The notes: generated from the letters alone by a model not told the origin. A stretch of 64,000 nucleotides of DNA from an uncultured Chlamydiales bacterium (GCA_963700985.1 OY969554.1:128001-192000), one strand, 5' to 3'; positions 40,381 through 58,738 are shown, counted from the stretch's first letter. Numbers and translations: made by a program.

Positions 40381-40435
40381 AAGAAATGTGGGGCAACCTG
40401 GGTTTGAACCAGGGACCGACGGATTATGAGTCCGC
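40381..40435 (-). repeat. att direct repeat (displaced 3' part of the tRNA)
   Basis: AAGAAATGTGGGGCAACCTGGGTTTGAACCAGGGACCGACGGATTATGAGTCCGC equals 58658-58712 except G40402 vs A58679; no D-arm or 5' acceptor strand. Confidence 0.95.
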
Positions 40436-40541
40436 AGCACCCACGCCACTTCCCAGCAGCTAACTCCCCGAAATCATAGCGGAAAGCGCCCCTTTCCAGC
40501 TACCGCGATCTATCGTCAATTATCGCGCTTTTTTGCATGCC

Positions 40542-40565
40542 AGTGGTCCACAAATGGTCCACGGA
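40542..40565. repeat. Integrase arm-type site pair (tandem TGGTCCA), distal end
   Basis: AGTGGTCCACAAATGGTCCACGGA, 22/24 identical to 58562-58585. Confidence 0.75.
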
Positions 40566-40688
40566 AATTGTCGCAGCATGATGCGACTTTTGAATTGTTC
40601 GGAGATTTCGAATGGTTCAATTTTCTCTAAATCATTAAAAATCAGATGTATAACAGATTTTTAAGAGGAGATAGATTTTTGGTCTCAA

Positions 40689-40744
40689 CTGTTCAATATT
40701 TCTGTCTGTTCAATATATAGTGAACAGTGTAATATAATGAACAG
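40689..40744 (+). promoter_or_regulatory. Operator array over the promoter of the AbiE-like operon
   Basis: CTGTTCAATAT at 40689 and 40706; TGAACAG at 40721 and 40738 (17-bp period, inverted pairs); overlaps TATAAT 40733-40738. Confidence 0.7.
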
Positions 40745-40756
40745 AAGGAGATCGCA

Positions 40757-41488
40757 ATGAAAGGTCGTTTCCTAGTAAATTCCAATGAAGATCCAGCAGA
40801 AGGGAATGTCTATGCAGACAAGTCTTCTCTCGTGCTTGATTGGCTGCTTCGAGAAGGACTTTCTAGAGAAAGCTTCTCATTGAGAGAAGTTGCTAAAGAC
40901 GTGGGAGTAAGCCTTGGTCTGGTTCAACGTGTTTTTAATATTCTGGTCCTGAAAGGACTTCTGCAAGTTGAAGGTGTAAGAACTGCCAAGAGATTTTCCT
41001 TTAATAAGCCAAAAGAACTTCTAGAAAGCTGGTTAGAGCATTATAGCATCGTGAAAAAATGCAAAATCAGAACGTATCGTTCCGCTCTTTCTGGAAAGTC
41101 AGAATGGTTCAAGGCTTTAAAGAAATCTGGACTTGGGGCAGACGTAATCTTGGCCCTTCATTCAGCAGCCGAAGCGTTTGGGCTTAAGAATACCAACCTG
41201 GAAGGATTAGAATTGTATATCCTTGATCCTTCGATTAGAGCGAAATTGGAAAGTGCTCTGCAATTAGAACCACAAGAAAGAGGATATGAAATTTTGTTGA
41301 TCGAGCCTTACTATAAGATGCTGATCAAGCAAAATAAGAAGGACGGTAAAGAAATTGGCGTTTGCCCTCTTCTCCTTACCTTTTTAGATCTTTATCATTT
41401 TCCCCTGCGAGGACAAGAACAAGCAGAATTTATAGCTCAGCGAGCACCTGAACTGAAACGCATCTACAAAAGCCCTAAGAACAAATGA
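40757..41488 (+). CDS. AbiEi-like type IV toxin-antitoxin antitoxin (wHTH + AbiEi_2-like C-terminus)
   Basis: SLREVAKDVGVSLGLVQRVF wHTH; ELLESW; C-terminal PLLLTFLDLY....RGQEQAE. Confidence 0.8.
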   Translation: MKGRFLVNSNEDPAEGNVYADKSSLVLDWLLREGLSRESFSLREVAKDVGVSLGLVQRVFNILVLKGLLQVEGVRTAKRFSFNKPKELLESWLEHYSIVKKCKIRTYRSALSGKSEWFKALKKSGLGADVILALHSAAEAFGLKNTNLEGLELYILDPSIRAKLESALQLEPQERGYEILLIEPYYKMLIKQNKKDGKEIGVCPLLLTFLDLYHFPLRGQEQAEFIAQRAPELKRIYKSPKNK

Positions 41489-42273
41489 AACAGCCTCAAG
41501 AAGATAAAATCATTTCAGAATTTTTAAAGTCACTGGGACCATGGCGTGAGTTCGTTGTTATTGGGGGTGGTTTTGCTCTTTTTATTTACAAGCTTTACCT
41601 CGCCGATCCCAAGCTCGAGAATCTTCCTGTCGGAACGCGAGATATCGACTCGTTGATTCCCAGAAGAGTTCCTGAGATCTCTAAGAAGAACATCGCCAAA
41701 TATCTCAATGAAGCGGGCTTTACTCACGTCTTCAAAGATGTCGATATTCCTGCAACCGAAAGTTTTGTGAAAGAGATCGATGGTGTAGAAGTAGAGATCG
41801 AGTTTTTAACGGACTCGGCTACCCGAGATGATAAGAATAAAAATGTCATGATCGCAGGCATTGTTGCTCAGCCATTGAGCTACTTGACGCTGAGCCTGCA
41901 AACGACAATGGAATTTCGAACCTATTCAGGAGAAGCGGGAAAAGTCGTCTCACCTGGAGCATGGATCTTCCATAAAGGGCTTACTTTTACTAGGCGGAAA
42001 AGCTCATCAAAGATGCTCAAAGATCTCTATGGGATCTGGTATGTAGTGACACAGCTGGGAGATTTCTCCGATCAAGCGCTTACGGAGTTTGCTTTCCTCT
42101 CTCAACAGCATCCAAAATGGTTGCAGACATTTCAGAAGCAATTGTCCAATTGGATAAATCAAGCTTCTCCAAGTGATTGGTCTAAATTAGAGTCTCAAGA
42201 TCCGTCTGGAAAGCTGAAAAAGCTAAGTTTTGAGCGATCTATACAGAGGCTTGCGAGTGGCGCAAGAGTATGA
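41485..42273 (+). CDS. Nucleotidyltransferase-fold toxin (AbiEii/GSU2403-like)
   Basis: VVIGGG...TRDID Pol-beta-like motif, IEFLT, P...IFHK, KDL; ATGA overlap with the antitoxin. Confidence 0.8.
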   Translation: MKQPQEDKIISEFLKSLGPWREFVVIGGGFALFIYKLYLADPKLENLPVGTRDIDSLIPRRVPEISKKNIAKYLNEAGFTHVFKDVDIPATESFVKEIDGVEVEIEFLTDSATRDDKNKNVMIAGIVAQPLSYLTLSLQTTMEFRTYSGEAGKVVSPGAWIFHKGLTFTRRKSSSKMLKDLYGIWYVVTQLGDFSDQALTEFAFLSQQHPKWLQTFQKQLSNWINQASPSDWSKLESQDPSGKLKKLSFERSIQRLASGARV

Positions 42274-42278
42274 GGTCT

Positions 42279-43064
42279 TTAGAGGCTTATCCCTTTGCAA
42301 AACCATTCTATTGTTTCTTTGCTTTTTATCCCTGCACCTCCTAGGGGATAGCCATAGCTTCTATATGTTGAAAGGAAGTAGAGATTAGATATGACCTCTT
42401 CGAGGTAGTCAATATAGATTTTTACGTCTTTCCATTCTGGTTGATAAGCTGGATTTTTGAGGTCAACATGAGCTGCAACCCGATCTCTGTAATCATTGAT
42501 TATTTTTCTTTTCTCAAATAAGTCATTTCTAATTTCTTCAAAATTTTCGGCGCGTGGCTGTCCTTGGTCGTTTAAACCGAATTTAAAAAACACTTTTGAA
42601 AGCTGTTCATGTCGAGTGAGGCACGCTAAATATTCGTTTTTGCGAACCGGATCAGCATTACCTTGTGCCTCTACGAGTTTCTTTAGAGGAGTCTTTTTAA
42701 ATAGGCACGTGTATTTAGAGGTGATTGAATTAATTAGAGATAAGGTTTTATCTGTGATGTCAGAAAGTGCGATGGGAATAAATTTACACAAGTCTTCGAA
42801 TAACAAAATAAGAGAGATATTTCGGATTGGGATATTTGGTAAGTTCTGCGCGACAGCAACAAGTATTTCGAACTTATGTTTCAATATATCAAATGGATCG
42901 AAGATTTCATTCTTTATTCTATTAGAAAACTCTTCTCGCAATAAATAGTGCACGTCAAGGTTTTCTGTAATAAATTTAACGTGTTCTTCTGTCAGTGGGT
43001 GAAGTTCAGCCCCATTGTATAGCCAATCAATCGTTCCATTAAGAAATGGCGGCAAAGTCTTCAT
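42279..43064 (-). CDS. HEPN domain protein (AbiU2-like predicted RNase)
   Basis: All-helical 261 aa with Rx4-6H motif YRDRVAAH near the C-terminus; AT-rich. Confidence 0.65.
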   Translation of the reverse strand: MKTLPPFLNGTIDWLYNGAELHPLTEEHVKFITENLDVHYLLREEFSNRIKNEIFDPFDILKHKFEILVAVAQNLPNIPIRNISLILLFEDLCKFIPIALSDITDKTLSLINSITSKYTCLFKKTPLKKLVEAQGNADPVRKNEYLACLTRHEQLSKVFFKFGLNDQGQPRAENFEEIRNDLFEKRKIINDYRDRVAAHVDLKNPAYQPEWKDVKIYIDYLEEVISNLYFLSTYRSYGYPLGGAGIKSKETIEWFCKGISL

Positions 43065-43201
43065 TCTTTTTCCCTCGTTAAAGAGAGGAATTCTATAGAG
43101 AAAATGAGTTTTTTTCCACTGACGCCATTTTTCGTTCCAACAATTTGCAATAGAATTCGATCGTTTACAACTAAACTCGTGCTATAACAATAGGAGCAAA
43201 C

Positions 43202-44338
43202 ATGGAACAGAAAGAAAGCTTGGGAAAAACGGAAAATGATCTCAGAGGAATTATCGTGAGGACTCATAGGCATTGCCAAACCTATCGAGTGCGTATTCGG
43301 ATGAAGGGCGGTCAGTGTTTTGATAGATCATTTAGATCGAAGACTCTCGCGAAAAAATGGAAGAGGGATATGGAATCGGCAATCGAGCATGACCGGTATG
43401 AATTCACGAATCCTGCAACCAAACATATCCTTGCGGATCTGATCAACCTCTACATCGAGAGGGTGCTGCCTGGGAAGCCACGGAATGCCAAGAATGTTCT
43501 TCGGCACCTGACTTGGTGGAAGGAGGAACTTGGGCATTTGCTGTTAGCTCAAGTGCGGCCTAGCATAATCGCAGAAAAAAGGGATGAGCTGCTTGCGGGC
43601 TTTGTTAGAAGCGGAAAGCTCCGCTCTCCTACAACGGTGGTGCGCTATCTGAGCAGTTTATCCCATGTCTTTTCAAAGGCGGTCAAAGAGTGGGAGTGGA
43701 TGAGAGAGAATCCTATTTTTAAGATTGAAAAGCCCAAGCAGGCGCAAGGTAGAAAGCGGGTATTAACTGATGAGGAGCAAAAAAGACTTTTGCAGGCATG
43801 CCAAGAGAGCGGATCGAAAGACTTGTTCTTGATCGTTGCTCTTGCCCTAGGAACGGGTATGCGAAAAGGCGAAATCATGGGGCTGAGATGGAGAAATATT
43901 CAGTTGGGAGAGCCCACAGGAACAATTCTGCTTGAGAGGACGAAGAATGGTCGTTCAAGGTCTGTTTTGATTACCGGCCTATTGCTAGGGCTTTTGCAAG
44001 AACGATACAAACAGCAGCGCGCTGATAGCTTGGTCTTTCCATCTCCCAATTATCCCACCCAGCCTGTTGATATCCGATCTGCTTGGGAAAGAGCCTTGCA
44101 AAAAGCTGAGATAGAAGGATTTGTTTTCCATGGATTGCGTCATCAGGCGGCTTCTCAAGCAGCAACGATTGAAAACAGTCCTTTGGTCATTGCAGAGTTG
44201 CTCGGCCATCAGACCCTTCAGATGACCAGGCATTACGTTCATTTGCCAAGCGCTCATATGCACACGATGGTCGAAGCACTTCAATCAAAAATCTTTCAAA
44301 ACTATCAGGAGGGCAGCCATGCACAACTTAGAAAATAA
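43202..44338 (+). CDS. Tyrosine recombinase/integrase (internal paralog)
   Basis: TGMRKGE, TKNG, FHGLRH, LGHQTLQMTRHY: full catalytic set. Confidence 0.93.
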   Translation: MEQKESLGKTENDLRGIIVRTHRHCQTYRVRIRMKGGQCFDRSFRSKTLAKKWKRDMESAIEHDRYEFTNPATKHILADLINLYIERVLPGKPRNAKNVLRHLTWWKEELGHLLLAQVRPSIIAEKRDELLAGFVRSGKLRSPTTVVRYLSSLSHVFSKAVKEWEWMRENPIFKIEKPKQAQGRKRVLTDEEQKRLLQACQESGSKDLFLIVALALGTGMRKGEIMGLRWRNIQLGEPTGTILLERTKNGRSRSVLITGLLLGLLQERYKQQRADSLVFPSPNYPTQPVDIRSAWERALQKAEIEGFVFHGLRHQAASQAATIENSPLVIAELLGHQTLQMTRHYVHLPSAHMHTMVEALQSKIFQNYQEGSHAQLRK

Positions 44339-45043
44339 GCCACAGGCATCATTGTGGAGGCCAGAGCTGCTCAGCGATGAGGAAATGCACGAATGCTTGA
44401 AGGAAACGTGCTGGACTGCCAGAAGAGCCGCTTATTATGTCCTCGGCTTGAAAATCCCCGATCTCGGTAGCCTTGAGGAAGAGAAAAGGCTTTGCCCTGA
44501 TTTTGAGAAGTATTTCGAGCTTTTCGAAAACTGTTTTGAAGAGGGAAGAATTGCAGTTCATTCCTTCTACTCGGAATATGGCAAGACTGTTCGGACTGCC
44601 TTGCCTGTCGATTGGTTGAAGCTAGTCCATAAGGGACGGCTGAAAGATGATGCCATCGAATGACAAGGAGGTAAAGCGGGAAGGTCTGTATGTCGCTCCT
44701 TTGCTCACAGAAGCTTGGCTGCTTTTGCAAGGGAAGGCGGTCTTCGCCAAAAGGCGACCTGCTCAAGAAAGGGACGATAAGCTTTTTGCTTGGAGTGCTG
44801 CCAGAAAGCTGCGCAAAGATTTTCCTCAGTTGTCCAACCGCCAAATGGCACAGATCATCTTCAAGCATTGCTCGAAGTGTGCAGAAGTATCCCTTCAAGA
44901 CTGTTTACGGCTGGGTCATCGATTCAGCCATTCCGATAAATGAAGAGCCTTCGCAAAGCAGAAGAGATAGAAATGGTCGTCCTAAAAAAGACAGCTATCA
45001 GAAGCTCTCTGTCGATTTCTCCTCCTATTTCAATAATTTGTAA
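44319..45043 (+). pseudogene. Hypothetical gene coupled to the internal integrase, probably one ORF split by frameshifts
   Basis: Three overlapping same-strand ORFs (44319-44663, 44647-44943, 44690-45043) tile the interval; TVYGW...GRPKK end is typical of small DNA-binding proteins of mobile elements. Confidence 0.45.
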
Positions 45044-45058
45044 CTCACTGCTATTCAA

Positions 45059-45120
45059 CGCATTTTACGGTTTTCCCACCGACGCCATTTTTTCATGGCG
45101 ATAGGTCGCCGTAAAATGCG
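45059..45120. promoter_or_regulatory. Stem-loop upstream of the xis-like gene
   Basis: CGCATTTTACGG (45059-45070) / CCGTAAAATGCG (45109-45120) perfect 12-bp stem enclosing CGCCAT/ATGGCG. Confidence 0.6.
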
Positions 45121-45158
45121 GTTATTAAATTCAAACTGCAATAGCAGAGGAGTGAGAA

Positions 45159-45452
45159 ATGAAAAACGATAGATCAAAAAATATAGACGAAGTGGCTGCA
45201 GAGCCAAAACAGACACGGTTCATCCCTGTGTCGAAATGGAATGAGTTTCATGAATGGCCACCAGTCGGTGGAATGCGCCACTTGATCTTTTTTCGAAACG
45301 AAAATGGGTTTGCCAAGGTCTTAAAGCGCCCTAATCGAACCTGGCTCATTGATGAGAAGGCATTTTTCAAGTGGGTATCTGAGAAAAAATACAGACCCCG
45401 CAAAAAGGAGCCCGAAGTCCAGGAAAACGCTAAAATCGCAGTACAGCCATGA
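45159..45452 (+). CDS. Excisionase/AlpA-like small DNA-binding protein
   Basis: RFIPVSKWNEFHEWPPVGGMRHLIF..NGF...LIDEKAFFKWV winged-helix pattern; GAGGAG RBS; lies between integrase and rep. Confidence 0.7.
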   Translation: MKNDRSKNIDEVAAEPKQTRFIPVSKWNEFHEWPPVGGMRHLIFFRNENGFAKVLKRPNRTWLIDEKAFFKWVSEKKYRPRKKEPEVQENAKIAVQP

Positions 45453-46503
45453 TAACTTCCGAAGGATTCGTAAAACTTTATCGAGAGGGACTTGCGCTTT
45501 TAGAACTCAGCCTTCCAGCTTTCGCGTTGTTGACGCAGATTGCTTTGCGTGCAAACCGGATGGATCCCGCTTATTCAATCTATCAACTCAAGGCTAACGA
45601 AGCACTCGTTGGCGATCATAAAAAGATTGGTTTGTCCAGGCAGCAATATCGTGATGCGGTACTGAGGCTTGAAGCACACGGTCTTGCGACTTTCCGAAAA
45701 ACCAATCAAGGGACTATTGCAGTTCTCACTAACAAAGCCATTTTTGACATCAATGCTGAATCGGATGAAGGGCCTATAAAGGCGTGCACAGCCTTAGAAA
45801 AAGAACCAAATTACAGCCAAGCAAAACCATTCATCAGCCATTAGAGAACCAAAAAGAAACCACTTTGGAACCATCAAAAGAACCATCAGATTTGTCAATG
45901 AAAAATCGAGAAAAAGAACCACCCAAAGAACCAGTTAACAACCACCAAAGAACCATAAAAGAACCGGATAGAAACCAATCGGGAACCAATCCAGAACCAC
46001 TAACAAAGAAAGAAGAAAAAGAAGAAGAAAAAAGAGCTGCAGCAGCCTATTCACGCACTTTTTACAAATGCTTGGATGGATTGGATTTGAGCGATCAGGA
46101 GAAGAGATCCCTGATGTGCTATAGCGAACATCGTGTGGCTCATGCTGCGGAATTTGTGAGAAGAAAGCACAATGTCGACAGCCCCATCGGGCTGATGATG
46201 TGGGTTTGCCAACAGCCTAGCCTCCCTGAGCTTCCCAAGGAAAATCGAAAAAGTATGACTCCTCAGCAAAAGCTTGCTTGGGAGTACAACCAATTTCTTA
46301 GCAGCAATGGCTATACTGCTCAAGCAAAGCAGAATGAGGAAAAGATCCCCAATGATCGAATGGTGATTTTAGAACAGGGGCAACTTATGCCGATTACGCT
46401 AAACCATCCCCTTCAGATCCTGCAGGAAGATTTTCGAAAGTCCAAAGAGGAAATTTTGAAAAGCCAGAGGATAGTTCGAGGGCTGCAAGGTGATAAATTA
46501 TAA
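45449..46503 (+). CDS. Phage-type replication initiator-like protein, split by a single -1 frameshift near 45820
   Basis: N-terminal GFVKLYR...GLSRQQYRDAVLRLEAHGL wHTH, repeat-rich linker ending KKEEKEEEK, C-terminal VDSPIGLMMW; ATGA overlap with xis. Confidence 0.7.
45803..45999 (+). repeat. Iteron-like array (putative origin of replication) inside the rep gene
   Basis: NA(A/G)CC(A/G) units at 45803, 45814, 45824, 45835, 45846, 45857, 45868, 45880 and 45916, 45928, 45939, 45950, 45961, 45972, 45983, 45994 (~11-bp period). Confidence 0.75.
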
Positions 46504-46629
46504 GCGGTCTGACAAGGCACAATGGGGAGACTTTAGGGAGGGGTTTTGCGGAGCTAATAAAAAGAGAAAATACCCTAGCAAAACCTCCACCCATCCCGTA
46601 AATATTTTCCGTTTTTCAAGAAGATTCAT

Positions 46630-46658
46630 TTGACACAATGTTATCCTTTGGATAACAT
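46630..46658 (+). promoter_or_regulatory. sigma70-type promoter containing a perfect palindromic operator
   Basis: TTGACA (46630-46635)-17 bp-TAACAT (46653-46658); ATGTTATCC-ttt-GGATAACAT (46638-46658). Confidence 0.75.
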
Positions 46659-46687
46659 GATGAAAGTTCAGCAAAATAGGTTTCCAG

Positions 46688-49600
46688 ATGAGTGAGTCTG
46701 AAGTAAGAACAATCGAACCGCAAGCAATCCGGCGCATTCGAGGATCGCTTGGGTTGACTCAAGACGAATTCGCAAAAGAACTGGGAGTTTCAAAGATAAC
46801 GATAGTTCGATGGGAATCCGGAGATAGGGCTTGTAAAGGTGCTTCCGCGCGCCAAATTTATGATTTGGAGCGAAAAAGATGTGCTAATATGATTCGTCGG
46901 ACAACTACAATCTTTTCAGTCGGAGTAGATGATCTTTCACGCCTGGATGGGATTCAAGCAACTCGAACATTTAGAGATTTTCTATACTGCGAAGCCCGCA
47001 GAATAGGCATTCCAATCAATGATATTGATATTTGCGAATCAGAGCTCTCCGATGGGGGAATTGATGCAAGAGTGAATGATAAGCTTCTTATCGCTACAGA
47101 TAGTATTATCTTGCCGGGGAAAAATTATTTTCAGATAAAAGCTGGGAGTAGCGCCAAACCTTGGAATAAATCTTGGGTTCAAAAAGAATTATTCGGCAAA
47201 AGTGGGCTATCGCATGTTTTAAGAGAAAAAATCGGTAAAGAAGTTCTGAGGTGTTTAGAAGAGAATGGGCGATATGTATTAGTTTGCTTTGGAAAGGATC
47301 TAACCCCAGAACAGATTTCGGATGCTAAAGCTCACCTTGTATCGCATTTCGCGCAGTGTGGCTATCCAAATGCTAAAGTAGAAGTATGGGGGCAACAGCA
47401 TTTGATCGGGATGATTTCTCCCTTTCTTTCCCTGTGTTTGCAACTTACCGATCGAAAGGGATGGAAATTTAAATATTACTCAAGCTGGAAGCTGGATCAG
47501 GACATGGCACAAGCTTTTTGCCTGGATGAACAGAGAAACCGTCTAATTCTAGAAATACGTGAACATTTATTTAAGGACGAAATCCGTCATATTCGATTGG
47601 TAGGAGATTCTGGAGTGGGGAAGACGCGCCTTGCTTTAGAAATACTATCTCATTATGCCTTGTTTCCGTCAGTTGTCTATGTCCCTAATGCAGAAGATTT
47701 TCAAAGTGGCTCATTATTCAACAGCTTGTGTAGGTCCGATGCTGAATATTTTGTTATCTTGGTACTTGATAATTGCTCTTCACAAAAATGTAAGGAAATT
47801 TGGAATTCGTTACGTAATCGATCAAATCAATGTAGAATTATTTCAATTGATCAAAGCGGTTACAAGACTAATGACCAGTTGGAATGTGTACTTGAATGCC
47901 CTCTTTTGCCAGAAGATAAAATTAATGAAATAATCAAAAATTACATTGGAACAACTTCTGATTTGAGACGTTGGGCTGAATTTTGTTCAGGCTCTGCTCG
48001 AGTTGCTCATGTGATTGGACAAAATCTACGGGATTGTCCAGAAAATCTTTTTCGAGAGCCATCTACTGTTTCAATTTGGGATAAATTTATAGCTGGATAC
48101 AGTTCTTTAGAAAGTGTTGATGTTCAAAACAAGCTATTCGTTTTGAAATACTTATCTCTATTTGAAAGATTTGGTTTTGAGTCTCCTGTAACAGAAGAGG
48201 CAAAGTTTATTTGGGGCCTCATAAATAAGGCTGATCCTACAGTCACTTGGAGTAAGTTCCAGTCGATCATCCAAGAGCTGAAACGACAGCGTATTCTTCA
48301 AGGGGAAACAACTCTTCGTATCACTCCAAAAGCGCTGCATATTTATTTGTGGCTTCGCTTTTGGAACGAAAACGGTCGCGGCTTCCTCGAAGGGGATTCA
48401 ATGGACAACATGCCTCCTCAACTCTACCTATGGTTTGGGAGAATGTTTCCTTATGCCCATGCTTCCCAAGTTGCGGCTCAAGAAATTAAACAATTGCTAG
48501 TTACTGAAGGGCCATTTTACAAGTCAAAGGTATTAAATTCGACGGAGTTAAAGCTTCTTAACGAACTGGCTCTTGCGTCCCCAGAAAGGACTTTAACCTA
48601 CATTGAGGCAAGTATTGGTCAATGCAGCTATGAGAATCTTTTGGCGTTTAAAAAAGGAAGGCAAGACGTGGTTTGGGCTCTTGAAAAAATTGCCTGGTGG
48701 CCACATTTATTTTGCCGAGCTGCTGAGGTTCTGCGTAGGCTTGCTGAAACTGAAAACGAAACACATTCAAACAATTCCAAAGGTGCTTTTGCTGATCTTT
48801 TCAGTCTCGCGCCAGGATTTTCCCCTACAGGTGCCACTCCCTTAGAGCGATTATCCGTTTTAGAAAACGCTCTTAATTCATCTTCTTCTATCACGCGTGA
48901 GGTTGGGGTCATCGCCTGCCGCAAGGCTCTTTCTTTACCCATACATTCGGGATTTCGCATTGTTGGCTCCGAGTACCAAGGATTACGGCAAACTCTTTCG
49001 CCTTGGATGCCTAAAACATGGGATGAGTATAAAGATGCATACCAAATTATTTGGAAGCTTCTTACTGATGCCAGCCGAAAGTGGAGTATTGATGATCGCG
49101 CAAAGGCTAATTCTAATCTTACCGATTCAGCAAGATATCTATTAGATTTCGACTGGATGAGAGAACCCATTCTTAGAACACTGAATGAACTGGCAGATGA
49201 CGAAGCAACAAATATAAGTAATTTTTTAGATACATTAACCCATCTAATACGATTTAAATCTGAAGAACTGCGTCAGATCTCATCGTTTTCCTCAAAGCGA
49301 TTGATGCCCGGATTACCGGCACAACTTTTTCTTCGCACATCAGACGATGGATTCATTTAAGCGGTTATAATGATCATTTCGATGAAAATGGAAGAAATGA
49401 TGATACTTATAATCAGCGGATTAAGAATCTTGCTTCGGAGGCTGTGTTAAATAGTGATCTGGTCAAAAAAGAGCTTCCTAATCTTATAACAGAGGTAAAT
49501 AGAGTTGTCTTTCAATTTGGGAAAGATATAGGCGAATGTGATAGTGAAAAGAGTCTGCTTAGGAAATCATTGAGGTTTATAGACTAAACCTGTAAATGCT

Positions 49601-50634
49601 TCCTCCATTCTAGGAGGCTATTTAAAAGCTATCTTCGAGTCCAGCCCAACTCAGTGGGAAGAGCTTGTTTTTGGGCTAATTAGTGATATCACCTTCTGTA
49701 AATTAATTGGGATGTTCATTCGAGATTCTGGTTTTACAGACACCTCTATTGAACAACTACTCAGTGAGTATGATGCAGGGAAGCTTGACATAGATAGTCT
49801 TCTTTGTTTTCACCATTCTCAAGGATTAAAATCTTTGAAGTTAGTAAATATTCAAAAGCTTGCTGAACGGTTCGAAAAAGCAGGCAAAATTCTCAATGCT
49901 TTGGAACATTTGGAAGACATATATGTAATAAAAGAGCTCCGAAAAAACTCCCTAAGATCTCACAATGGGCTCCTAAAGGCCATCAATGTCTCACCTCCTT
50001 GTCATTCAATACATGAGTATCATTGGAATATTCTGGCTGAACAATTTATATCTCAATTTCCTAAGAGGAATGCGAGGTATTTCAAGCGGTTCTTGATAAA
50101 TCTTCTAAAGACATTGGATGCTTTCATTCCGATAATTCAATTTTAAGATTATCCAAGGAATTATCGCCTCTTGCCCCGAACAATGCTGGTCTATGATTGC
50201 TTCAAAGCTTGATACACTAAAAGAAATTGAAATATTCAGATTCACTCATTGGTTCAACTCTAGCGGCCTTCATCTGACACTATTTCCTCCGAAAGTTATC
50301 CTTGATTGGATTGCAGAAGCACCAACTAATCGAGCAGTTTCTATTGCGGGCATAGTTCCTCCTTTGCCAACTGAGGAATCTGCAGGTTTTCGTGCGTGAG
50401 CTACTAAATAGGTATGGGGATCAAGAGCAGGTTCAAGACGTACTTTTATCGAATTTCTTTTCCGGTAGTTGGGTAGGGCTCGAAAGTGCATATTTTCAGA
50501 GTAAGCACGAACTTGCGCATGAATGGCTTAAAAAGGAAACTTCAATGCGAGTACGAAGATGGTTGGAAAAATACGTTGCTGTTCTCTCAGAACATGTTAA
50601 AGGAGCAAAAATTAGAGAAGAACGTGAATTTTAG
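46688..50634 (+). CDS. XRE-HTH + PD-(D/E)XK nuclease + STAND-like NTPase + helical-repeat protein (Avs-like); 3' third frameshifted
   Basis: LTQDEFAKELGVSKITIVRWESG (HTH); DGGIDA...FQIK (nuclease); GDSGVGKT Walker A and ILVLDNC Walker B; coding continues in shifted frames from ~49270 to TAG 50634. Confidence 0.75.
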
Positions 50635-50643
50635 ACGGATTTT

Positions 50644-52125
50644 TTAGTTAAGCGATATTGATACGTTCTTAAAATTCGCAAGAGCTGCTTCTAGATTTTC
50701 AATAATCTCAGATGCCAGTATTTCCGGATCGGGGAGATTGTCGAGATCGGTCAGGCTTTTATCTTTAAGCCAAAAAATATCCAAGCTGGTTTTGTCTCGG
50801 ACGATCAACTCTTCATAGGTGTATTTGCGCCAACGCCCTTCTGGGTTAGTCTCAGGATCCCACGACTCTTTGCGAACATGACGATTTTGTGGGTTGTAGC
50901 ATTGAATGAAGTCTTGTAGATCGCTAAAACGCATTGGCTGCTTCTTCAGCGTGTGGTGGATGTTCGTTCGATAATCATAGTACCAAACCTCTTTTGACCA
51001 ATGAGACGGGCTGGCTTCGCGGTTGTCAAAGAAGAGCACATTAGCTTTGACTCCATTTGCGTAAAAAATACCAGTGGGTAAACGCAAAATGGTATGCAAG
51101 TCGGTATTCTCTAGAAGCTTTCTCCGAATGATTTCCCCTGCACCACCCTCAAAAAGGACGTTATCAGGCACTACAACAGCGGTACGCCCTGTTGTTTTGA
51201 GCATCGTCCGAATGTGCTGCACAAAATTGAGCTGTTTATTGGAGGTCGTTGCCCAAAAGTCCTGGCGGTTGTAGGTTAAATCATCTCTCTCTTGCTCTCC
51301 TTCATCATTGGTAAAGCTCATACTGCTCTTTTTTCCAAAGGGAGGATTGGCAAGGACATAGTCAAATCGCTGTCCGCTATCCGCAATTAGAGCGTCATTC
51401 GGAGAAACTGGGGTGTCGCCGTCAATTTCACCAATGTTATGGAGGAACATATTCATGAGGCAAAGACGGCGTGTGTTTGCGACGATTTCATTCCCGTAGA
51501 AAGTTTCTCGCTTTAAAAAGGCTTTTTGACTCTTATCTATTTGAGTCTTATTCGAATTGATGATGAAATCATAGGCAGCAAGAAAAAATCCTCCCGTTCC
51601 GCAAGCGGGATCTGCAATCGTCTTGCCAGGCTCGGGGCGGATACATTCCACCATGGCTTTGATAAGCGCGCGAGGGGTGAAGTACTGTCCTGCTCCTGAT
51701 TTCGTATCTTCTGCGTTCTTCTCTAATAGGCTTTCGTAGATATCTCCCTTGATATCAGCCTCCATGACTACCCACTCAATTTCATCGACCATGTTGATGA
51801 GGCGATATAATTTGGCAGGATCTTGGATTTTATTCTGCGCCTTGGTGAAGATCTGGCCAAGCATGCCTTTTTTAGATCCTAGCTCTCGTAATACAGTAAG
51901 GTAATGTGTTTCTAGCTCTGCACCTTTTTTTGATTTAAGGGTTTGCCAACTATAGAGCTCTGGGATTCCTACATTTCTACTGTAGGGTGGCCTAGAGTAT
52001 TCGTCAGCCATTTTAAGAAAGATGAGATAAGTTAGTTGCTCAAGATAATCGCCATAGCTGACGCCATCATCGCGTAAAGTAGTGCAGAAGCTCCAAACTT
52101 TGGATACGATTGATGCTGTGTTCAT
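50644..52125 (-). CDS. hsdM: Type I restriction-modification methyltransferase (m6A)
   Basis: GQYFTPR, DPACGTGGF, NPPF, VVPDNVLF, LRLPTGIFY. Confidence 0.96.
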   Translation of the reverse strand: MNTASIVSKVWSFCTTLRDDGVSYGDYLEQLTYLIFLKMADEYSRPPYSRNVGIPELYSWQTLKSKKGAELETHYLTVLRELGSKKGMLGQIFTKAQNKIQDPAKLYRLINMVDEIEWVVMEADIKGDIYESLLEKNAEDTKSGAGQYFTPRALIKAMVECIRPEPGKTIADPACGTGGFFLAAYDFIINSNKTQIDKSQKAFLKRETFYGNEIVANTRRLCLMNMFLHNIGEIDGDTPVSPNDALIADSGQRFDYVLANPPFGKKSSMSFTNDEGEQERDDLTYNRQDFWATTSNKQLNFVQHIRTMLKTTGRTAVVVPDNVLFEGGAGEIIRRKLLENTDLHTILRLPTGIFYANGVKANVLFFDNREASPSHWSKEVWYYDYRTNIHHTLKKQPMRFSDLQDFIQCYNPQNRHVRKESWDPETNPEGRWRKYTYEELIVRDKTSLDIFWLKDKSLTDLDNLPDPEILASEIIENLEAALANFKNVSISLN

Positions 52126-53617
52126 ACGGCGACCTTTTGGAGTTGTTTGGATTGCTTCTTTTTGGGTTGTTTAGTTTCTTTTTCAGCCTTAATGTGTTCT
52201 AAAAGAGTGTTGGCAGGTTCATCATGGGTATCTTGAGAAACCAATTCTCCTGAAAAAGCTTTTTTTAGGATAGACTGACGAAGAGAATTGCTTCGTTTAA
52301 ATTCTATTTCAAAAGTTTTCTCCAAATGCGAGATCATAGATTGTACACTATCTATGATTCTAACAATTTCTAATGTTCTGCGTACGATGGCAATGGAACA
52401 GGAAAAGCGCGAAGCTTATTTAAACTAATCGAAGCTAGATTTGTAGTTTGCTTTCCTTCGCGGAGGAAGTAGCTTTACCAAAGACGCCGCTGTAATATGA
52501 AAGAAACTTTGAGTTGACCTCTTGGGTGTATGGACGAGCTCTAAATATATGGTTTTGATGGATGCAATACTCAATTTGACCATCCCAAACCCATCCTCTA
52601 CCTAATTTATCTCGATCCCCGCCTTCAGTGAAAAGAACATCGCCCACTTTTAATAGTAATTGATCTGCTTTTTCTTGATTAGTTTTAATTAATTTAATAT
52701 GCTTAAAATCCAAATATCCATCTTGAACATTAGCAACTCTCAAATAAGGAACTTCAATAGGGTTTGATATCTCCGTTTCTTTCTTCGCATCAACAGTTAG
52801 TCCACCCCTGATTTCACATAACGCGCCTAGCGTTGTATAGAGCCATTCCTTAGGTAATGCTGGCAAGCCTGTTAAATTCAGGTTTTCAGGCTCTTTGTAA
52901 TTCTCAGGAATTTTCGATCGCTGCCTTCTTTCTTCAAAAATATGCTGCAATAATTGCTTACTGTCATCAATGCAGAGCTCTTGTCCTTCACGCCATTTTT
53001 CAGTAAGTTTTCCTTCGAAAGCATTCTTGAGAATTGATTGGCGATATGCTTTTAGGAGTTCCTGCGCTTTCAGTAAATTTTCTATGCCCTTATCGATTTC
53101 AGAGAAAAGCTCTTCGATTTTGGCGACAATGCGTTTTTGCTCTTCGAAGGGAGGTAAAAAGATATTAACATATTCAGAAAATTTTTGGTAATTCCGCCCT
53201 GAGCGGCTCCTCGGAAATCTTGTAGATCTGTTTTTTTCCTGTCGAGAAAGTTGATAGAAAATCCATTTTGCTTCTATACATTTTGGAATTTTAAGACGGA
53301 AAGATGTTCGTGATAGTCGCAGTTTATAGGGGAATTGATTTGCTACAAAGGATGTTCTGCCCGTTGTGGCTCCGTCTTTAACAACTAAATGTCGTTGCGT
53401 TCAATTAATCCTGAAGTCATCTTCTGAAGGAATTCAAGTGGTATAAATCGAATTTTAGAAAAATCGAATCTTCCATCCAAACTTAAGTGCTTCCACCTAG
53501 GCTTGGAATCCGTTGGTCATAATGATCCACGCCACCTTTGGGCCTCTTTCCGGATTCAAGAGATAGTGAATCTCACTGAGTTTACATTCGATCCAGATTA
53601 TTACGATAATTTGTCAT
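52122..53617 (-). pseudogene. hsdS: Type I R-M specificity subunit with many frameshifts
   Basis: LPPFEEQKRIVAKIEELFS...RQSILKNAFEGKL, LPKEW, PYLRVANVQDG, LRQSILKKAFSGELVSQD across several frames. Confidence 0.88.
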
Positions 53618-53619
53618 CC

Positions 53620-56452
53620 TAAATGCCAATACCTCGTTAAGCTCAAGTATCAAACCTTCAAATTTTTCCCAAAAAGCTGATACATTTTCCCTAAGCCTCC
53701 TTTGGAATCAAAAGGGGCCATATCAAGGTCTGTCTTATCCATATGGAAAGAACTGATAATATGATCGCGAATCATTCTTAGCCAAGCCATTTGTTCTTCA
53801 TTGAACTTTTCGCCGTCGCCACTATGTCTCCTCATAATCCAGTTTTGGAAGTTGTGCCGTATTGTTTCAGAATATTCAGACATTTTTTTGTCGATTCCGC
53901 AAGCGCGACGTATAAGGGCAACTAAAGCAGTGAGTTCGTTAATCGGTTGGGCACCTTTGTATTCTTCTAGTTGAGCATAAGCCATCCATACGCGTAATGG
54001 GGCTAGCGTTAATCGGTTGGGCGCCTTTATATTCTTCAAGTTGGGCATAAGCCATCCATACACGTAATGGGGCAAGTTTTGGCTTATCTTGGCGTAGTTT
54101 GTCCAAGACTTGGCGAATCATGTCATAGGTGATTTCTCGTCGTCTTTGAGGTTGGCTGTAAAATATGCTAAGAGCTTCAATCTCATCTCGATGAATTTCC
54201 AGATATTCTTGGAACTCTTTTACCAGATTTTGAGCATTCTCTTTGGCGTCTCCATCCCACTCTGCACGTAGAATGGCATCCAGATTATCATGGTCGATCG
54301 TCTGCTCCTTATCTCGGCGAATATTCTCTAAGAGTTCAACCATTTCTCCATTTAGGACATTAGCTGCTTCGCCTACAAGAATCTCTTGAGCTCGCAAGCA
54401 GTCTGCATCGCTTGGTGAAGTGGCGGTTCCAACTGGTTGCATGTCATGAGCTTTCTTTTCGATCTTGTCGGGGTCTATGGCAGCCAGGAGATTGCCTATG
54501 ATAGTGCTTAGCTCAATGCCGCCTGACTGTTCTTTAATTCGCTGAAGATCCTTTTCCTCGAGCTGCTTATTTAGACGTGCCAACCTGCCAGCTAGCGAGC
54601 TGACTGTGTCCTCATCCCTCGCTCCCATCATGATGCTCATTGCTAAATCTTTTAATGGCACTGAAGGTTTGGTAATTAAAGGCTGGCTCGCAGTTTTTAG
54701 AGATTTGGTAACTCCAATGGCATCGACGATCACATAATGCGTTTTCGCACTGGTTGCAGAGGGGGTCACTTTCTTTAATTCGTCATGGCCAAATGTGCGT
54801 GTCCCACGTCCCTTCATCTGCTCGAAGTAGTTATGACTCTTTACGTCTCTCATGAATAATAAACATTCGAGGGGCTTCACGTCTGTGCCAGTAGCGATCA
54901 TGTCTACAGTGACCGCAATCCGAGGGTAGTAATCATTTCTAAATTGAGCGAGGACTGATTTTGGATCTTCTTCATTCTTGTAAGTGACTTTTTTGCAAAA
55001 TTCATTTCCCATCCCAAATTCTTCTCGGACAGTTTGAATGATGTCGTCGGCATGACTGTCAGTTTTTGCAAAGATCAGTGTTTTTGGCACTTCCTTTCGC
55101 CCAGGGAAAATATCCGGTAAACTATCTCTAAAGGCACGCAATACGGTCCTGATCTGGTCTGGATTTACGATGTCGCGGTCTAACTGCTTAACAGTATAGG
55201 ACTCATCTTCATCTTGTTGTTCCCATCTTTTCTTGCGGGTCAGACGCTCTCTTTTCTGAACTGGTTGATTGGCCTTGATGGTGCCACCGAATTTTGTTCT
55301 TTCAGTTTCTATGACATAGATCTCATTTCCGACATTCACTCCATCGGCAACGGCTGTTTCGTGGCTGTATTCACTGACGACATTTTTCTTGAAAAAGCCA
55401 TAGGTGCGGTTATCTGGGGTCGCTGTCAGGCCGATAAGATAGCCGTCAAAATAATCGAGAACTTGTTGCCATAGATTATAAATTGAACGATGGCACTCAT
55501 CGATAAAAATGAAGTCAAAAAACTCGATGGGAATTTTGCCGTTGTAAACAACTGGGATTGGTTTTTTTACCTGAGCTATTTCGGCAGGATTGATCTCTTC
55601 AGCAGATTCATCTAAGGACTGTTCTTTTAGTATGGAATACATACGCTGGATAGTGCAAATGCAGACTTGGCTATCTCTAGCAATGGAGGACGATTTTAGC
55701 CTCTGCACGTTATAGAGTTCTGTAAACTTGCGATTGTCATCGTTAGGGATGAAAGACATGAATTCTTGCTCGGCCTGCTCTCCTAAGTTTTTGGTGTCTA
55801 CCAAAAATAGGATTCGCTTTGCATTCGCATGCTTTAGAAGGCGATAGATGGTGGTAATCGCTGTAAATGTTTTGCCTGCTCCAGTGGCCATTTGGATAAG
55901 AGCGCGAGGGCGGTCATCTTTGAATGACTGTTCAAGATTTTTAATGGCGGTGATTTGACAATCTCTTAATCCTTCTTCGGTAAGGAGAGGAATTTGCTGG
56001 AGTCGGCCTCGGATCGAGTTTTTTTGAAGAAGCCATTCGTTTAAAGTTTCGGGGCGGTGAAAGTTGAATACTTCGCGTGATCTTGGTTTTGGGTCTCTTC
56101 CATCAGTAAAGCGTGTAATTACCCCTGTGCTCTCGTAGATGAAGGGTAAGGATTCATTGTTATTCACCCATTTCAGCTTAGCAGTAGCATATTCGCTAGA
56201 TTGTTCCTCGACGGTTGTAATGCGGTGTCCCCAGTCTTCGGGTTTCGCCTCGATCACTCCTACAGCTGTTTTATCAATAAATAGAACATAGTCAGCGGGA
56301 CCAACATCTGTTTGATATTCGCGGACTGCGATACCAAGACCTGCATTCGGATCGAATTTTTTGATTGATTGAACGATCCATCCTGCTTGTGCAAGGAGGG
56401 CATCTATTTTATCACGAGCGATTTGTTCTGGATTTTGATTTCTGTAGCTCAT
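53620..56452 (-). CDS. hsdR: Type I restriction endonuclease subunit R (EcoEI/type IB-like); C-terminus disrupted by a 70-bp duplication
   Basis: ADY.L...IEAK, MATGAGKT, DECHRS, GLTATP, TGTD, QMKGRGTR; start ATG 56452; 3' end approximate. Confidence 0.92.
53937..54076. repeat. Imperfect 70-bp tandem duplication in hsdR
   Basis: 53937-54006 and 54007-54076 differ at 6 positions; both encode LAPLRVWMAYAQLEEYKGAQPIN. Confidence 0.95.
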
Positions 56453-57189
56453 GCCAGGAGTGCCCCTAATTCTGTTTGGGTAGCAATTCGATAGCTGCAG
56501 AGGGAACATGTGGCATGAGAGGATGGAGGCTGGGAAGCGGTTAGCACAGCTTGAATCTCAAGTAATTTAGGCTCAATCCAACTATCATCGCCAAGATAAG
56601 GGATGACCGAGATCTCGAATTTTAGACATTCGTCAAATGCAGGGACGTCCTTCTTGCCATTGCAGTAAACAAAATAGCCTGTCGGGGAAACTGAGAATCC
56701 GTTTTTTCTGAATAGCCATTGGTAAATTTCCATTTGCCTTTTGTAGCTAATTTGCCAGTCTGCATCTAAGTTGATTTCTCCAGCTTTACTGGTCGCCTTA
56801 TAGTCCACAATGATCAGTTCTCCAGAAGGAGTGATCCAAACGTCATCAATGGCTCCTGCCACTAAAAATCGAGTCGGTTCGTGTAAGTAGGAAATGCCCT
56901 TCAGATTTTTTCGCCATTCATCAAGTTTTTCATGTTGAAAAGGGATTGCATCAATTTTATGTTTGATCATCAGCGGATGGGCTTCGCCTTTTGCTCGGTA
57001 GAAATCGAATTCTTTTTTCAAGAGATGGTCAACAGCAGAGTTGAGATTGAACGGAAATCCTCCAGGTTGCGCAACTCCAAGTTTGCGATCGAGGTAGAAG
57101 CAAAAGGGACATTCACAAAAAAGCTCGATCTTTGATCGGCTTAATTTGAATGGTTTTGTGTCTTGTGGATCAAAGCCCTTTCTTTTCAT
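56449..57189 (-). CDS. PD-(D/E)XK nuclease (RecB/Cas4-like)
   Basis: LSRSKIELF.ECPFC, GAIDD, IVDYKAT, QMEIY, C-terminal CSLC; ATGA overlap with hsdR. Confidence 0.88.
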   Translation of the reverse strand: MKRKGFDPQDTKPFKLSRSKIELFCECPFCFYLDRKLGVAQPGGFPFNLNSAVDHLLKKEFDFYRAKGEAHPLMIKHKIDAIPFQHEKLDEWRKNLKGISYLHEPTRFLVAGAIDDVWITPSGELIIVDYKATSKAGEINLDADWQISYKRQMEIYQWLFRKNGFSVSPTGYFVYCNGKKDVPAFDECLKFEISVIPYLGDDSWIEPKLLEIQAVLTASQPPSSHATCSLCSYRIATQTELGALLA

Positions 57190-57428
57190 CTTTTCCGTTT
57201 TAAGTTGTTGATTTAACGTATAATAAGATAGCAGAATTGCAAATAATGCGATATATTGATTTAACGACAGTTAAACTATTTTATTTGATTTTGATTTGTT
57301 TGTTGTTTTAATGGAGGCGGTCAGAATAAAGAAATTTTTTAGGGCATTCTAAATCAATGCGTAAAGGTTTGTCTCTTCGTCAAAGAATTTTTGATTTTTG
57401 GAGTGCTTCCTTTCTGCTGAATGCTATT

Positions 57429-58496
57429 TTATTTTTTACTACTGAACAATTTCTCATTTAGACCCACAGCTGCTGAATAGATATGTGCATTGGAGAGATG
57501 GGCGTACCGCTTGGTCATTTGGACGGTTTTGTGGCCCAGCAGAGTTCCGATCTCTAGCAGACTCGCTTGATTCATGGCCAAGTAGGAAGCGGCTGTATGG
57601 CGAAGGTCGTGAAAGCGGAAGTTGAAAATATTGGCTTTGCTTAGAGCGGTTTCCCAAGCAGAGCGGATGTCGATAGGTTTACATGGAGCATGTGGAGCAG
57701 GAAATACTAGAGAGTTAACGGCTTGATTGGCGTATTTTGAACGCAAAAGATCTAGAGCTGTTCCGACAAGAGGGATAAAACGCCGCTCACCATTCTTTGT
57801 AATTTGTAAAAGGATCGAACCTCGAGCCAGATCGATATCGCTCCATTTGAGATTCATGATTTCTCCTCTCCTCATGCCTGTTGAAAGAGCTAGTATAACA
57901 ATTGGGTAGAGTCCTTTTGATTCGCTTTCTCGGCAGGCAGATAGCAGTCTTTCCTTTTCATCATCGTTGAGAAAGCGAGTTCTGCCATTTGAGATTTTCG
58001 GTTTTGAGATTTTCATGATGGGATTTTCCTGGATCCATTCCCAATCCTTAACCGCGATAGCAAAGGCATGAGACAAACTGGCAAGGTAGCGAACTACGGT
58101 TGTGGAAGAACGGATTGTGCCTTTATAAGTCAGCCCTGAAAGCAGCTCATCCCGTTTTTGTGCGATGAGGCTTGGCTTGATATCTGAAAGGAGGCAATGT
58201 CCCAGTTCCTGTTTCCACCAGAGAAGATGTTGGCGGACGTTTCTTGCATTCTTTGGCTTTGATGGAAGAACTCTTTCGATATAGCGGTCGATCAGCTCCG
58301 CTAAAGTATTTTTGCTGCCAGGTTTGTCATATGCATATTTGCCTTGTTCAACAGCTGATTCAGTATCGCGTTTCCATTTCATGGCGAGAGTTTTGGAGGC
58401 GAATGATTGGATGAGGACCGGATGTCCTTTGATTCGAACGCGGGCGCGGTAGGAAACCGTCCCGTTTTTATGGGTGCGTTTATCGATGCCTTTCAC
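57429..58496 (-). CDS. Tyrosine integrase adjacent to the tRNA att site
   Basis: TGMRRGE, TKNG, FHDLRH, LGHKTVQMTKRY; N-terminal arm-binding-like YRARVRIKG; GTG start. Confidence 0.95.
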   Translation of the reverse strand: MKGIDKRTHKNGTVSYRARVRIKGHPVLIQSFASKTLAMKWKRDTESAVEQGKYAYDKPGSKNTLAELIDRYIERVLPSKPKNARNVRQHLLWWKQELGHCLLSDIKPSLIAQKRDELLSGLTYKGTIRSSTTVVRYLASLSHAFAIAVKDWEWIQENPIMKISKPKISNGRTRFLNDDEKERLLSACRESESKGLYPIVILALSTGMRRGEIMNLKWSDIDLARGSILLQITKNGERRFIPLVGTALDLLRSKYANQAVNSLVFPAPHAPCKPIDIRSAWETALSKANIFNFRFHDLRHTAASYLAMNQASLLEIGTLLGHKTVQMTKRYAHLSNAHIYSAAVGLNEKLFSSKK

Positions 58497-58561
58497 AAGC
58501 TTACCTTTGTTTTAGATTTTCAAAGGTTAGCTGCTGGGCTTATCGCCAATTGTTGTAGGCG

Positions 58562-58585
58562 AGTGGTCCATAAGTGGTCCACGGA
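58562..58585. repeat. Integrase arm-type site pair (tandem TGGTCCA), tRNA-proximal end
   Basis: AGTGGTCCATAAGTGGTCCACGGA matches 40542-40565. Confidence 0.75.
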
Positions 58586-58665
58586 TGTGAACCGCGCTTT
58601 GAGGCTGATTTGGGTGCTTTATCGCAACCAGCTCAGTTTCAGCCTTATGAAGGCAAAAAGAAATG

Positions 58666-58738
58666 TGGGGCAACCTGGATTTGAACCAGGGACCGACGGA
58701 TTATGAGTCCGCTGCTCTAACCGCTGAGCTATTGCCCC
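58666..58738 (-). tRNA. tRNA with CAT anticodon, elongator type (probably Ile2, possibly Met)
   Basis: GGGGCAA-TA-GCTC..GAGC-A-GCGGA-CTCATAA-TCCGT-CGGTC-CCTGG-TTCAAAT-CCAGG-TTGCCCC-A cloverleaf; paired 1:72 and no triple G-C anticodon stem, so not initiator; CCA not encoded. Confidence 0.95.

Follow-up and report, generated by a model that had tools for sequence, protein, structure and literature searches.

An Avs8-like nuclease receptor carrying a fused helix-turn-helix domain and a palindromic promoter element through which it probably represses its own gene

To our knowledge, little is known about how cells keep the level of cell-killing, NLR-like nuclease receptors safe. The regulators known from bacterial defence systems, C proteins, CapH/CapP and CapW/BrxR, are encoded by separate genes. 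A locus from an uncultured Chlamydiales bacterium raises the question of whether such a regulator can be built into the receptor. It lies within a stretch of 64,000 nucleotides (GCA_963700985.1 OY969554.1:128001-192000; this whole stretch is called the window, and positions are counted from its first letter) and encodes a protein in which an N-terminal XRE-type helix-turn-helix (HTH) domain is followed by an Mrr-like nuclease, a nucleoside triphosphatase (NTPase) module of the STAND class and a long C-terminal sensor region, while a palindrome occupies the promoter of the same gene (Table 1). Our preferred reading, to which we assign a probability of roughly 0.72, is that of an Avs8-type single-protein anti-phage receptor whose fused HTH domain represses its own promoter. 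The fused domain and the operator are the new part, the Avs8 body and the autorepressor fold being already known, and the comparative support for self-repression, drawn from sequence, appears unusually clean. Since the repressor would be part of the receptor, both would be made at a fixed 1:1 ratio, and the likely built-in repressor would represent a form of dosage control in cis that has arisen several times in one receptor family.

A first-pass annotation of the window, made from the sequence alone, had proposed a TTGACA-17-TAACAT promoter shortly upstream of the gene and a perfect 9-3-9 palindrome filling its spacer and -10 box. Both are present. The promoter scan gave 10 of 12 consensus matches, and the distance from the -10 box to the ATG is 29 nucleotides (nt), as had been stated. 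Searched with up to three mismatches, the palindrome is a single match in the window, where 0.01 would be expected by chance and where this was reached in 1 of 100 shuffles; in the genome of 2,067,302 bases it is the sole site with at most two mismatches. The possibility that it acts as an RNA hairpin or terminator was considered and rejected, as no T-run follows it and it is situated upstream of the transcription start predicted at about 46665; its RNA fold has a free energy of -11.5 kcal/mol (z -2.4), a value equalled by 4 of 200 shuffles.

If this element were the operator of the fused domain, relatives with the same domain should carry it as well. We collected 159 related loci with flanks, 80 from genomes and 79 from metagenomes, defined gene starts and the lengths of N-terminal extensions, and classified extensions of at least 35 amino acids (aa) with Pfam (61 scanned). 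Eleven loci with an open 5' end, an unusable start or a first match located past residue 130 were dropped, as were loci with less than 120 nt of upstream sequence and near-duplicates with more than 90% identical upstream sequence. Among the resulting 129 non-redundant loci, nine belong to class A, which is the HTH_3 type of the window protein (conserved helix ...VARWESG), 28 to class B (HTH_37, PF13744), four to class C (another HTH_3 type) and one is MqsA-like; a further 61 loci have no extension, and in the remaining 26 the extension either had no family match or fell below the length scanned. The window is represented in class A by L081, a metagenome locus, and the nine class A loci correspond to about eight lineages because L001 and L089 are close to each other.

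Fusion and upstream palindrome indeed go together in these homologs, as the first-pass annotation had anticipated, and each of the two larger classes has a palindrome of its own. In all nine class A loci TTGACA or TTGAAA is followed after 6-8 nt by a palindromic core, which reads TATCC-N3-GG[AC]TA in eight loci and TAACC-N3-GGTTA in one (L002), and the right arm also provides the -10 box in the relatives (TATTAT, TACCAT, TATCAT). The motif is found in none of the 120 other loci. In the 1,215,765 bases that the 129 loci comprise, eight copies of motif A lie in these promoters and two elsewhere. Class A proteins share only 40-50% identity, a distance at which unconstrained intergenic DNA is not expected to remain alike, and the conserved operator therefore counts in favour of self-repression. 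In L002, the locus with the variant half-site, the recognition helix differs too (ASQITVARWESG instead of V[SGAT]K...), though this is a single case. Class B loci have T[AT]TATC-N0-8-GATA[AT]A in 22 of 28 cases, compared with none of the 101 others, and in the same total of bases the promoter windows contain the strict form TATATC-N6-GATATA 28 times, with a single further occurrence outside them. The class B site is often doubled, with copies about 29 bp apart, and in loci with a recognisable TTGAC -35 element it occupies the spacer, GATATAAT forming the -10 box. For class C, in which two tandem GCAAT-N4-ATTGC sites are seen in two of four loci and five occurrences lie elsewhere, the evidence for an operator is weak. 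A best inverted repeat with a score of at least 7 within 120 nt upstream was present in 5/9 class A, 25/28 class B and 2/4 class C loci, compared with 10/61 HTH-less loci and 4/26 loci with other extensions; both the class A and the class B palindromes are absent from the HTH-less relatives.

The promoters themselves show some variation in layout. Leaders of about 25-30 nt are found in the window, L020 and L082. In the five class A loci of the Planctomycetota type (L001, L002, L086, L087 and L089) the start codon follows the predicted -10 box after 7-9 nt, and their mRNA would have little or no leader. The promoter of L116 (2200..2345) contains three tandem units of about 20 nt (AATATCCTTTGACATATTA), by which the left half-site and the -35 element are repeated ahead of the full palindrome.

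The N-terminal XRE-type HTH domain, likewise part of the earlier proposal, is matched by Pfam HTH_3 over residues 14-47 (35.2 bits against a cut-off of 23, E 1.3e-8) and is also apparent as a fold; in addition, the PADLOC capH profile matches residues 7-96 (E 2e-6). An AlphaFold model of residues 1-291 has a mean predicted local distance difference test score (pLDDT) of 86, with 95-97 over residues 11-60. In VIA-align its HTH part gave Z values of 9.9 with HigA2, 9.8 with Aca10, 9.1 with C.Kpn2I, 8.5 with MqsA and 7.0 with the N-terminal domain of CapH, and HipB is also among the structural matches. As modelled, the fold resembles that of known autorepressors (C.Kpn2I, HigA2, MqsA, Aca proteins, CapH). 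A two-copy prediction of residues 1-76 with alignment (score 0.09, mark 0.42) carries no weight either way. According to the self-repression reading, the XRE HTH domain of about 73 residues would bind the palindrome, probably with two receptor molecules on the two half-sites, and would thereby block RNA polymerase at the -10 box, so that the receptor represses its own transcription. This negative feedback would keep a potentially self-toxic nuclease receptor at a low and buffered level.

The palindrome could in principle be read by another host factor or be a mere promoter element, with the HTH domain inhibiting the nuclease or contacting proteins. It would suit such a role that the -35 and -10 hexamers belong to the conserved part and that XRE domains also occur as toxin-binding antitoxin modules, HigA2, MqsA and HipB being among the structural matches named above; the half-site TTATCC resembles part of a DnaA box. 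The conserved core ATCC-N3-GGAT, however, is located in the spacer and is not read by sigma-70, and the palindrome tracks the HTH class, TATCC-N3-GGATA accompanying HTH_3 and TATATC-N6-GATATA accompanying HTH_37, while being absent from HTH-less relatives. No host factor would track the fused domain from phylum to phylum, and we consider this explanation highly improbable.

It could also be argued that the HTH domain is a DNA tether or targeting module which keeps the receptor on DNA or reads a DNA feature of the invader, that the nuclease thereby acts locally and that any effect on its own promoter is incidental. The HTH domain directly adjoins the nuclease, and a passage in Kaur et al. (2020) on HTH domains in the effector modules of such NTPase systems, in which operators and autoregulation are not mentioned, is in keeping with this idea. 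A tether would hardly be expected to have its own promoter as the sole genomic site with at most two mismatches (2.07 Mb), and two unrelated HTH classes keep their palindrome exactly between -35 and -10, the position expected for a repressor. The closest structural relatives of the HTH domain, moreover, are dedicated autorepressors. In our view a purely tethering role is improbable, and self-repression remains the preferred reading.

How often this arrangement has arisen was approached with a FastTree phylogeny of residues 74-860 with 120 rows, in which support values are local Shimodaira-Hasegawa-like (SH-like) only and from which ten rows with stops or short sequences were left out (L002, L055, L075, L089, L103, L126, L130, L141, L146, L151). 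Class A (8 rows), class B (27) and class C (4) each form one clade, with local support of 99, 99 and 100, respectively. One of the two branches unites classes A and C with HTH-less forms; the other holds class B and the MqsA-like form, again alongside HTH-less forms. As each HTH class forms its own clade, we regard the fusions as separate events. The receptor body acquired DNA-binding domains of different kinds on at least four occasions, or on five if the MerR form P0031, available as a protein only, is counted; the fused domains thus number at least four to five (two HTH_3 kinds, HTH_37, MqsA-like and MerR). In the two well-sampled classes a class-specific palindrome was gained at the same promoter position, and their promoter design has thus converged.

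The other domains assigned by the first-pass annotation also withstood closer inspection. In the Mrr-like PD-(D/E)xK domain the motifs DGGIDA (D122..A127) and FQIK (F148..K151) are present, and all 44 homologs compared have D122, G124, D126, Q149 and K151 unchanged; the motif residues are likewise invariant in a set of 27. D...QxK is a variant of the PD-(D/E)xK motif that occurs in Mrr, and the invariant D122, D126, Q149 and K151 fit it. In VIA-align the modelled domain gave middling Z values with restriction endonuclease folds (FokI cleavage domain 7.8, N-terminal nuclease of LlaBIII 7.5, MspJI 7.2) and with the nuclease of Avs4, residues 1-177 of which align to model residues 75-258 (Z 7.0, equally middling). 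Foldseek, when used with the two-domain N-terminal model, returned matches to the HTH domain alone, at E > 0.001, and the nuclease fold surfaced only in VIA-align.

For the NTPase, the Walker A and Walker B motifs are present, and G306, G311, K312 and D361 are kept by all 44 homologs. The modelled segment, residues 275-660 (pLDDT 86.7), has Apaf-1 (E 1.6e-8), Dark, NRC2/3, MalT and CED-4 as best Foldseek matches and gave VIA-align Z values of 16.2 with the NLR WRR4A and 16.1 with the G10 resistosome (312-313 residues), 13.4 with CED-4 and 11.5 with Avs5. AAA+ clamp loaders and the origin recognition complex (ORC) reached Z values of 11-12.5, aligned over the nucleotide-binding domain only. Because the alignments to plant NLRs reach Z values of 16 and exceed 310 residues, the model supports membership of the STAND class, as had been suggested at the outset, with the order known from Apaf-1 and NLRs, in which a helical domain and a winged helix come after the nucleotide-binding domain; the Pfam scores stay below their cut-offs (NB-ARC 20.3 vs 23.5 bits, nSTAND3 13.9 vs 27.2, AAA_16 19.5 vs 32.6). 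The structure models cover residues 1-291 and 275-660, and the sensor beyond residue 660 is known from sequence. Searches of the PDB by sequence, with the single protein and with the family profile, matched the HTH domain only and retrieved no solved Avs8-like structure, and none of the NCBIfam families matches the body of the protein.

To which family does this body belong? PD-Lambda-4_A, for which PADLOC gives no curated cut-off, is the best PADLOC family of the 890-aa open reading frame (ORF) present in the window (E 2.6e-26) and of all five members scanned, the other four giving E values from 1.7e-28 to 4.2e-36. In P0001, an intact homolog of 1319 aa that is 99% identical to the window protein, residues 74-1317 match positions 2-1273 of the 1283 positions of the profile (E 1.2e-27, 94 bits), and two of the four other relatives match nearly the whole profile. 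PD-lambda-4 has been renamed Avs8 and is described as a system of two genes, Avs8A and Avs8B, in which Avs8A consists of an Mrr nuclease and a P-loop STAND module and becomes active as a DNase when it binds gpE of lambda or other HK97 capsid proteins (10.1101/2025.07.02.662641; 10.64898/2026.01.04.697583). For E. coli Avs8, phage defence and activation by the HK97-fold major capsid protein have been reported (10.1101/2025.07.02.662641). The label Avs-like given by the first-pass annotation therefore stands as far as the family relation is concerned, which extends from end to end, whereas the protein is not an orphan and belongs with the named and characterised Avs8/PD-lambda-4. We call it an Avs8-like distant relative, encoded by a single gene and with about 73 extra N-terminal residues on sequence evidence, because it has the same architecture and matches the same profile while being distant and single-gene. 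By homology with Avs8, the C-terminal sensor would most likely bind an HK97-fold major capsid protein, and by analogy capsid binding would lead to NTPase-driven oligomerisation and DNA cleavage by the Mrr domain.

The family is large: at E <= 1e-30 an exhaustive search with the 890-aa ORF yielded 595 cluster representatives, a number that rises to 1672 at a threshold of E <= 1e-10. Among the best 120 clusters of an indexed search the N-termini comprise HTH_3 in 22, HTH_37 in 24, MerR in one and an MqsA-like domain in one, and a DNA-binding domain is lacking in the remaining 72; since the ranking was by likeness to an HTH-bearing query, these figures are biased in favour of HTH forms. Upstream ORFs of relatives were scanned in 77 hand-picked cases of 252 collected, from genome loci L004-L080 only, and included separate HTH genes at two loci, L073 and L078, and an M78 peptidase gene at L029. 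A separate adjacent regulator is thus not the usual arrangement in the loci examined. The two HTH genes are of the HTH_3 type and lie directly 5' of an HTH-less receptor gene (L073:3399..3707 and L078:3127..3744), which may represent split forms; another possible split form is an XRE ORF at L106:65..382 that stops just before the nuclease domain. In L075, L157 and L159 the HTH domain is replaced by a Lys/Arg-rich N-terminal tail of 31-46 aa (MAKGNRK...RRPKRAQRKAHK...) with no Pfam match, which might bind DNA or RNA without specificity.

Is the gene in the window functional? The earlier proposal of a coding region of about 3.9 kb for about 1300 aa after repair of frameshifts agrees well with the intact allele of 1319 aa. 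In the window the reading frame that starts with the ATG at 46688 is open to 49360, which gives the ORF of 890 aa, and the remainder up to the stop at 50634 lies in other frames; tblastn with P0001 covered all of residues 1-1319 in several frame pieces. The frameshifts are real in this record. Compared with L081, which has the intact allele and 98.7% DNA identity over 46400..50900, the window is short of 13 single bases between 49271 and 50390, eight of which are C. Nine substitutions and no indels separate the window from L081 over the initial 2573 nt of the gene; over the final 1374 nt there are 18 substitutions and 13 indels, each a one-base deletion. The missing letters are present in all of the contigs compared, which come from four public runs, each belonging to a different study, and share 95-99% identity with the window.

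These frame breaks can be viewed in two ways. Thirteen one-base deletions crowded into 1.1 kb at less than 1% divergence favour sequence error, since a dead gene would be expected to decay evenly along its length, and the promoter, operator and start codon are undamaged in this record. It is therefore fairly likely that the breaks reflect poor sequence in that part of the record and not a dead gene, and if they are errors, the source organism probably has an intact gene. Alternatively, the window copy, though not the family, could be a true pseudogene in a decaying defence island, neither expressed nor regulated here, with only the relatives functional. The 13 frame-breaking deletions as such and the split hsdS and hsdR genes of the same island would agree with decay, as would the fact that none of the four sequencing runs reproduces the deleted version, so that the breaks are not attributable to a known error. 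With all indels confined to the last 1374 nt and an intact region for initiation of expression, we judge a pseudogene unlikely, albeit to be taken seriously. Over the 43686..52267 region compared, the gene differs from L081 by less than 1% outside the broken part and both flanks differ by 4-9%, which suggests recent gene exchange between strains or a constraint much stronger than that on the neighbours.

Several observations weigh against the preferred reading. Contact between the HTH domain and the operator is something we infer from sequence, and the same applies to repression, to the nature of the phage trigger and to defence activity. Motifs A and B were counted in the same loci that had defined them, and their absence elsewhere is the only independent check. 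With a single origin per class, there are two clear and one partial independent events of fusion plus palindrome and not 40. The HTH domain and an adjacent regulator are both absent in most family members, and autoregulation is therefore not a family requirement. Furthermore, the match to PD-Lambda-4_A is low per residue, its 94 bits being spread over about 1250 residues. No Avs8B partner follows the gene in the window, where the next gene is a convergent hsdM, and PD-Lambda-4_B was found at E <= 1e-5 in none of 62 co-directional downstream ORFs of relatives; with this partner missing, the phage trigger may differ from that of E. coli Avs8. Finally, the gene is broken in this record, as are the neighbouring hsdS and hsdR, and the window copy could be a real pseudogene.

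In a more far-reaching version of self-repression, the fused HTH domain would signal to the promoter of its own gene whether the receptor is activated. Resting receptors would occupy the operator and hold transcription down, and capsid binding by the sensor with NTPase-driven oligomerisation would pull the HTH domains off the operator, or clamp them onto it. Infection would thus turn receptor synthesis up or down within one molecule and without a separate regulator. We think of this version as rather unlikely at present. If it were true, dosage and feedback control in cis would be a recurrent design rule for single-protein bacterial NLR-like receptors. With one gene, one operator and a known trigger class, the locus would in any case offer a simple model for asking whether immune activation feeds back on receptor synthesis.

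Parts of this arrangement have counterparts in characterised systems. In Avs8A of E. coli ECOR07, as in the window protein, an Mrr nuclease is followed by a STAND NTPase and a long repeat-like sensor, the body measures about 1250 aa, and the gene is located in a defence or mobile island. The window protein differs by its N-terminal XRE HTH domain of about 73 residues with a matching promoter operator, by the missing Avs8B partner, by its distant sequence (94-122 bits over the whole profile) and by its origin from bacteria of the Planctomycetes-Verrucomicrobia-Chlamydiae (PVC) group and not from Gammaproteobacteria. Avs4 (PDB 8dgf) likewise joins an Mrr-like nuclease at its N-terminus to a STAND NTPase, but it lacks an HTH domain, has a different sensor and gave no sequence match in the PDB searches. 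As with C proteins and CapH, an XRE fold is combined with a palindromic operator that overlaps the promoter; unlike in C proteins, CapH and CapW/BrxR, which are separate small proteins, the domain is covalently part of the receptor. MalT, AfsR/SARP and GutR likewise combine a STAND NTPase and a DNA-binding HTH domain in one chain. There the HTH domain is the output, a nuclease is not present and metabolic or antibiotic genes are activated, whereas the window protein has a nuclease effector, and the predicted site of its HTH domain lies in its own promoter at the position of a repressor.

A close parallel in terms of regulation by a defence enzyme is provided by M.SsoII and M.Ecl18kI, in which an N-terminal region of about 70 residues is reported to bind DNA and to regulate transcription of its own system via an operator (PMC3978073, PMC2760811). 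These are methyltransferases of restriction-modification (R-M) pairs, in which two genes are coordinated, while the protein described here would be a single-gene receptor of the abortive type that apparently regulates only itself. Full-text literature searches retrieved no Avs protein with a fused autoregulatory HTH domain; domain tables in bioRxiv supplements, which lay outside the search, may list such a fusion.

Table 1. Positions of the receptor gene, its promoter elements and domains, and of neighbouring features in the window
Feature	Position	Strand	Basis or remark
-35 hexamer TTGACA	46630..46635	+	promoter consensus scan
Predicted operator ATGTTATCC-ttt-GGATAACAT	46638..46658		perfect 9-3-9 palindrome filling the spacer; right arm includes the -10 box
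-10 hexamer TAACAT	46653..46658	+	promoter scan; inside the right arm of the palindrome
HTH-Mrr-STAND-sensor gene	46688..50634	+	tblastn of intact allele; frame broken after 49270 in this record
XRE-type HTH	46706..46897	+	residues about 7-70; Pfam HTH_3
Mrr-like PD-(D/E)xK nuclease domain	46904..47461	+	residues about 73-258; motif at 47051..47140
STAND NTPase module	47510..48457	+	residues about 275-590; fold matches
Walker A GDSGVGKT	47603..47626	+	sequence
Walker B ILVLDN	47756..47773	+	sequence
C-terminal sensor region	48458..50634	+	residues about 591-1319; PD-Lambda-4_A profile; holds the 13 deletions
One-base deletions relative to L081	49271, 49565, 49589, 49607 (two), 49610, 49924, 49954, 49968, 50069, 50141, 50387, 50390		
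Repeat of tRNA-Met 3' half	40388..40455		about 55 nt
AbiEi-like antitoxin (PF09952) and adjacent nucleotidyltransferase (PF12281)	40757..42273		
Integrase gene	43202..44338	+	
Type I R-M system	50644..57189	-	hsdM, hsdS, hsdR region
hsdM	50644..52125	-	intact, 493 aa
hsdS	52122..52337 and 52435..52950	-	split or short
hsdR	53650..54075 and 53939..56509	-	EcoEI_R_C domain divided between overlapping ORFs
PD-(D/E)xK ORF	56449..57189	-	
Integrase gene	57429..58496	-	
tRNA-Met	58665..58738	-	

The receptor gene is situated in an island of about 18 kb that extends from the tRNA-Met gene to a repeat of the 3' half of this tRNA (40388..58738) and, with its two integrase genes, may consist of two tandem integrative elements. 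The AbiEi/AbiEii neighbours at its edge are likely an AbiE-type toxin-antitoxin or abortive infection pair. The broken state of hsdS and hsdR points either to further sequence errors or to a decaying island. The receptor gene is single-copy in its own genome and was found in none of the 40 relatives searched (five from its genus, 19 from its family and 16 from its order); because it is absent from these, we classify it as accessory and mobile. The neighbourhoods of related loci contain type I R-M genes, TIR, PDC and HEC candidates as well as toxin-antitoxin genes. In four class B loci from Nitrospirales (L017, L022, L028 and L044) a type I methyltransferase gene begins 16-34 nt past the stop codon of the receptor gene on the same strand, and owing to this co-directional arrangement the fused HTH domain may control an operon there that includes R-M genes.

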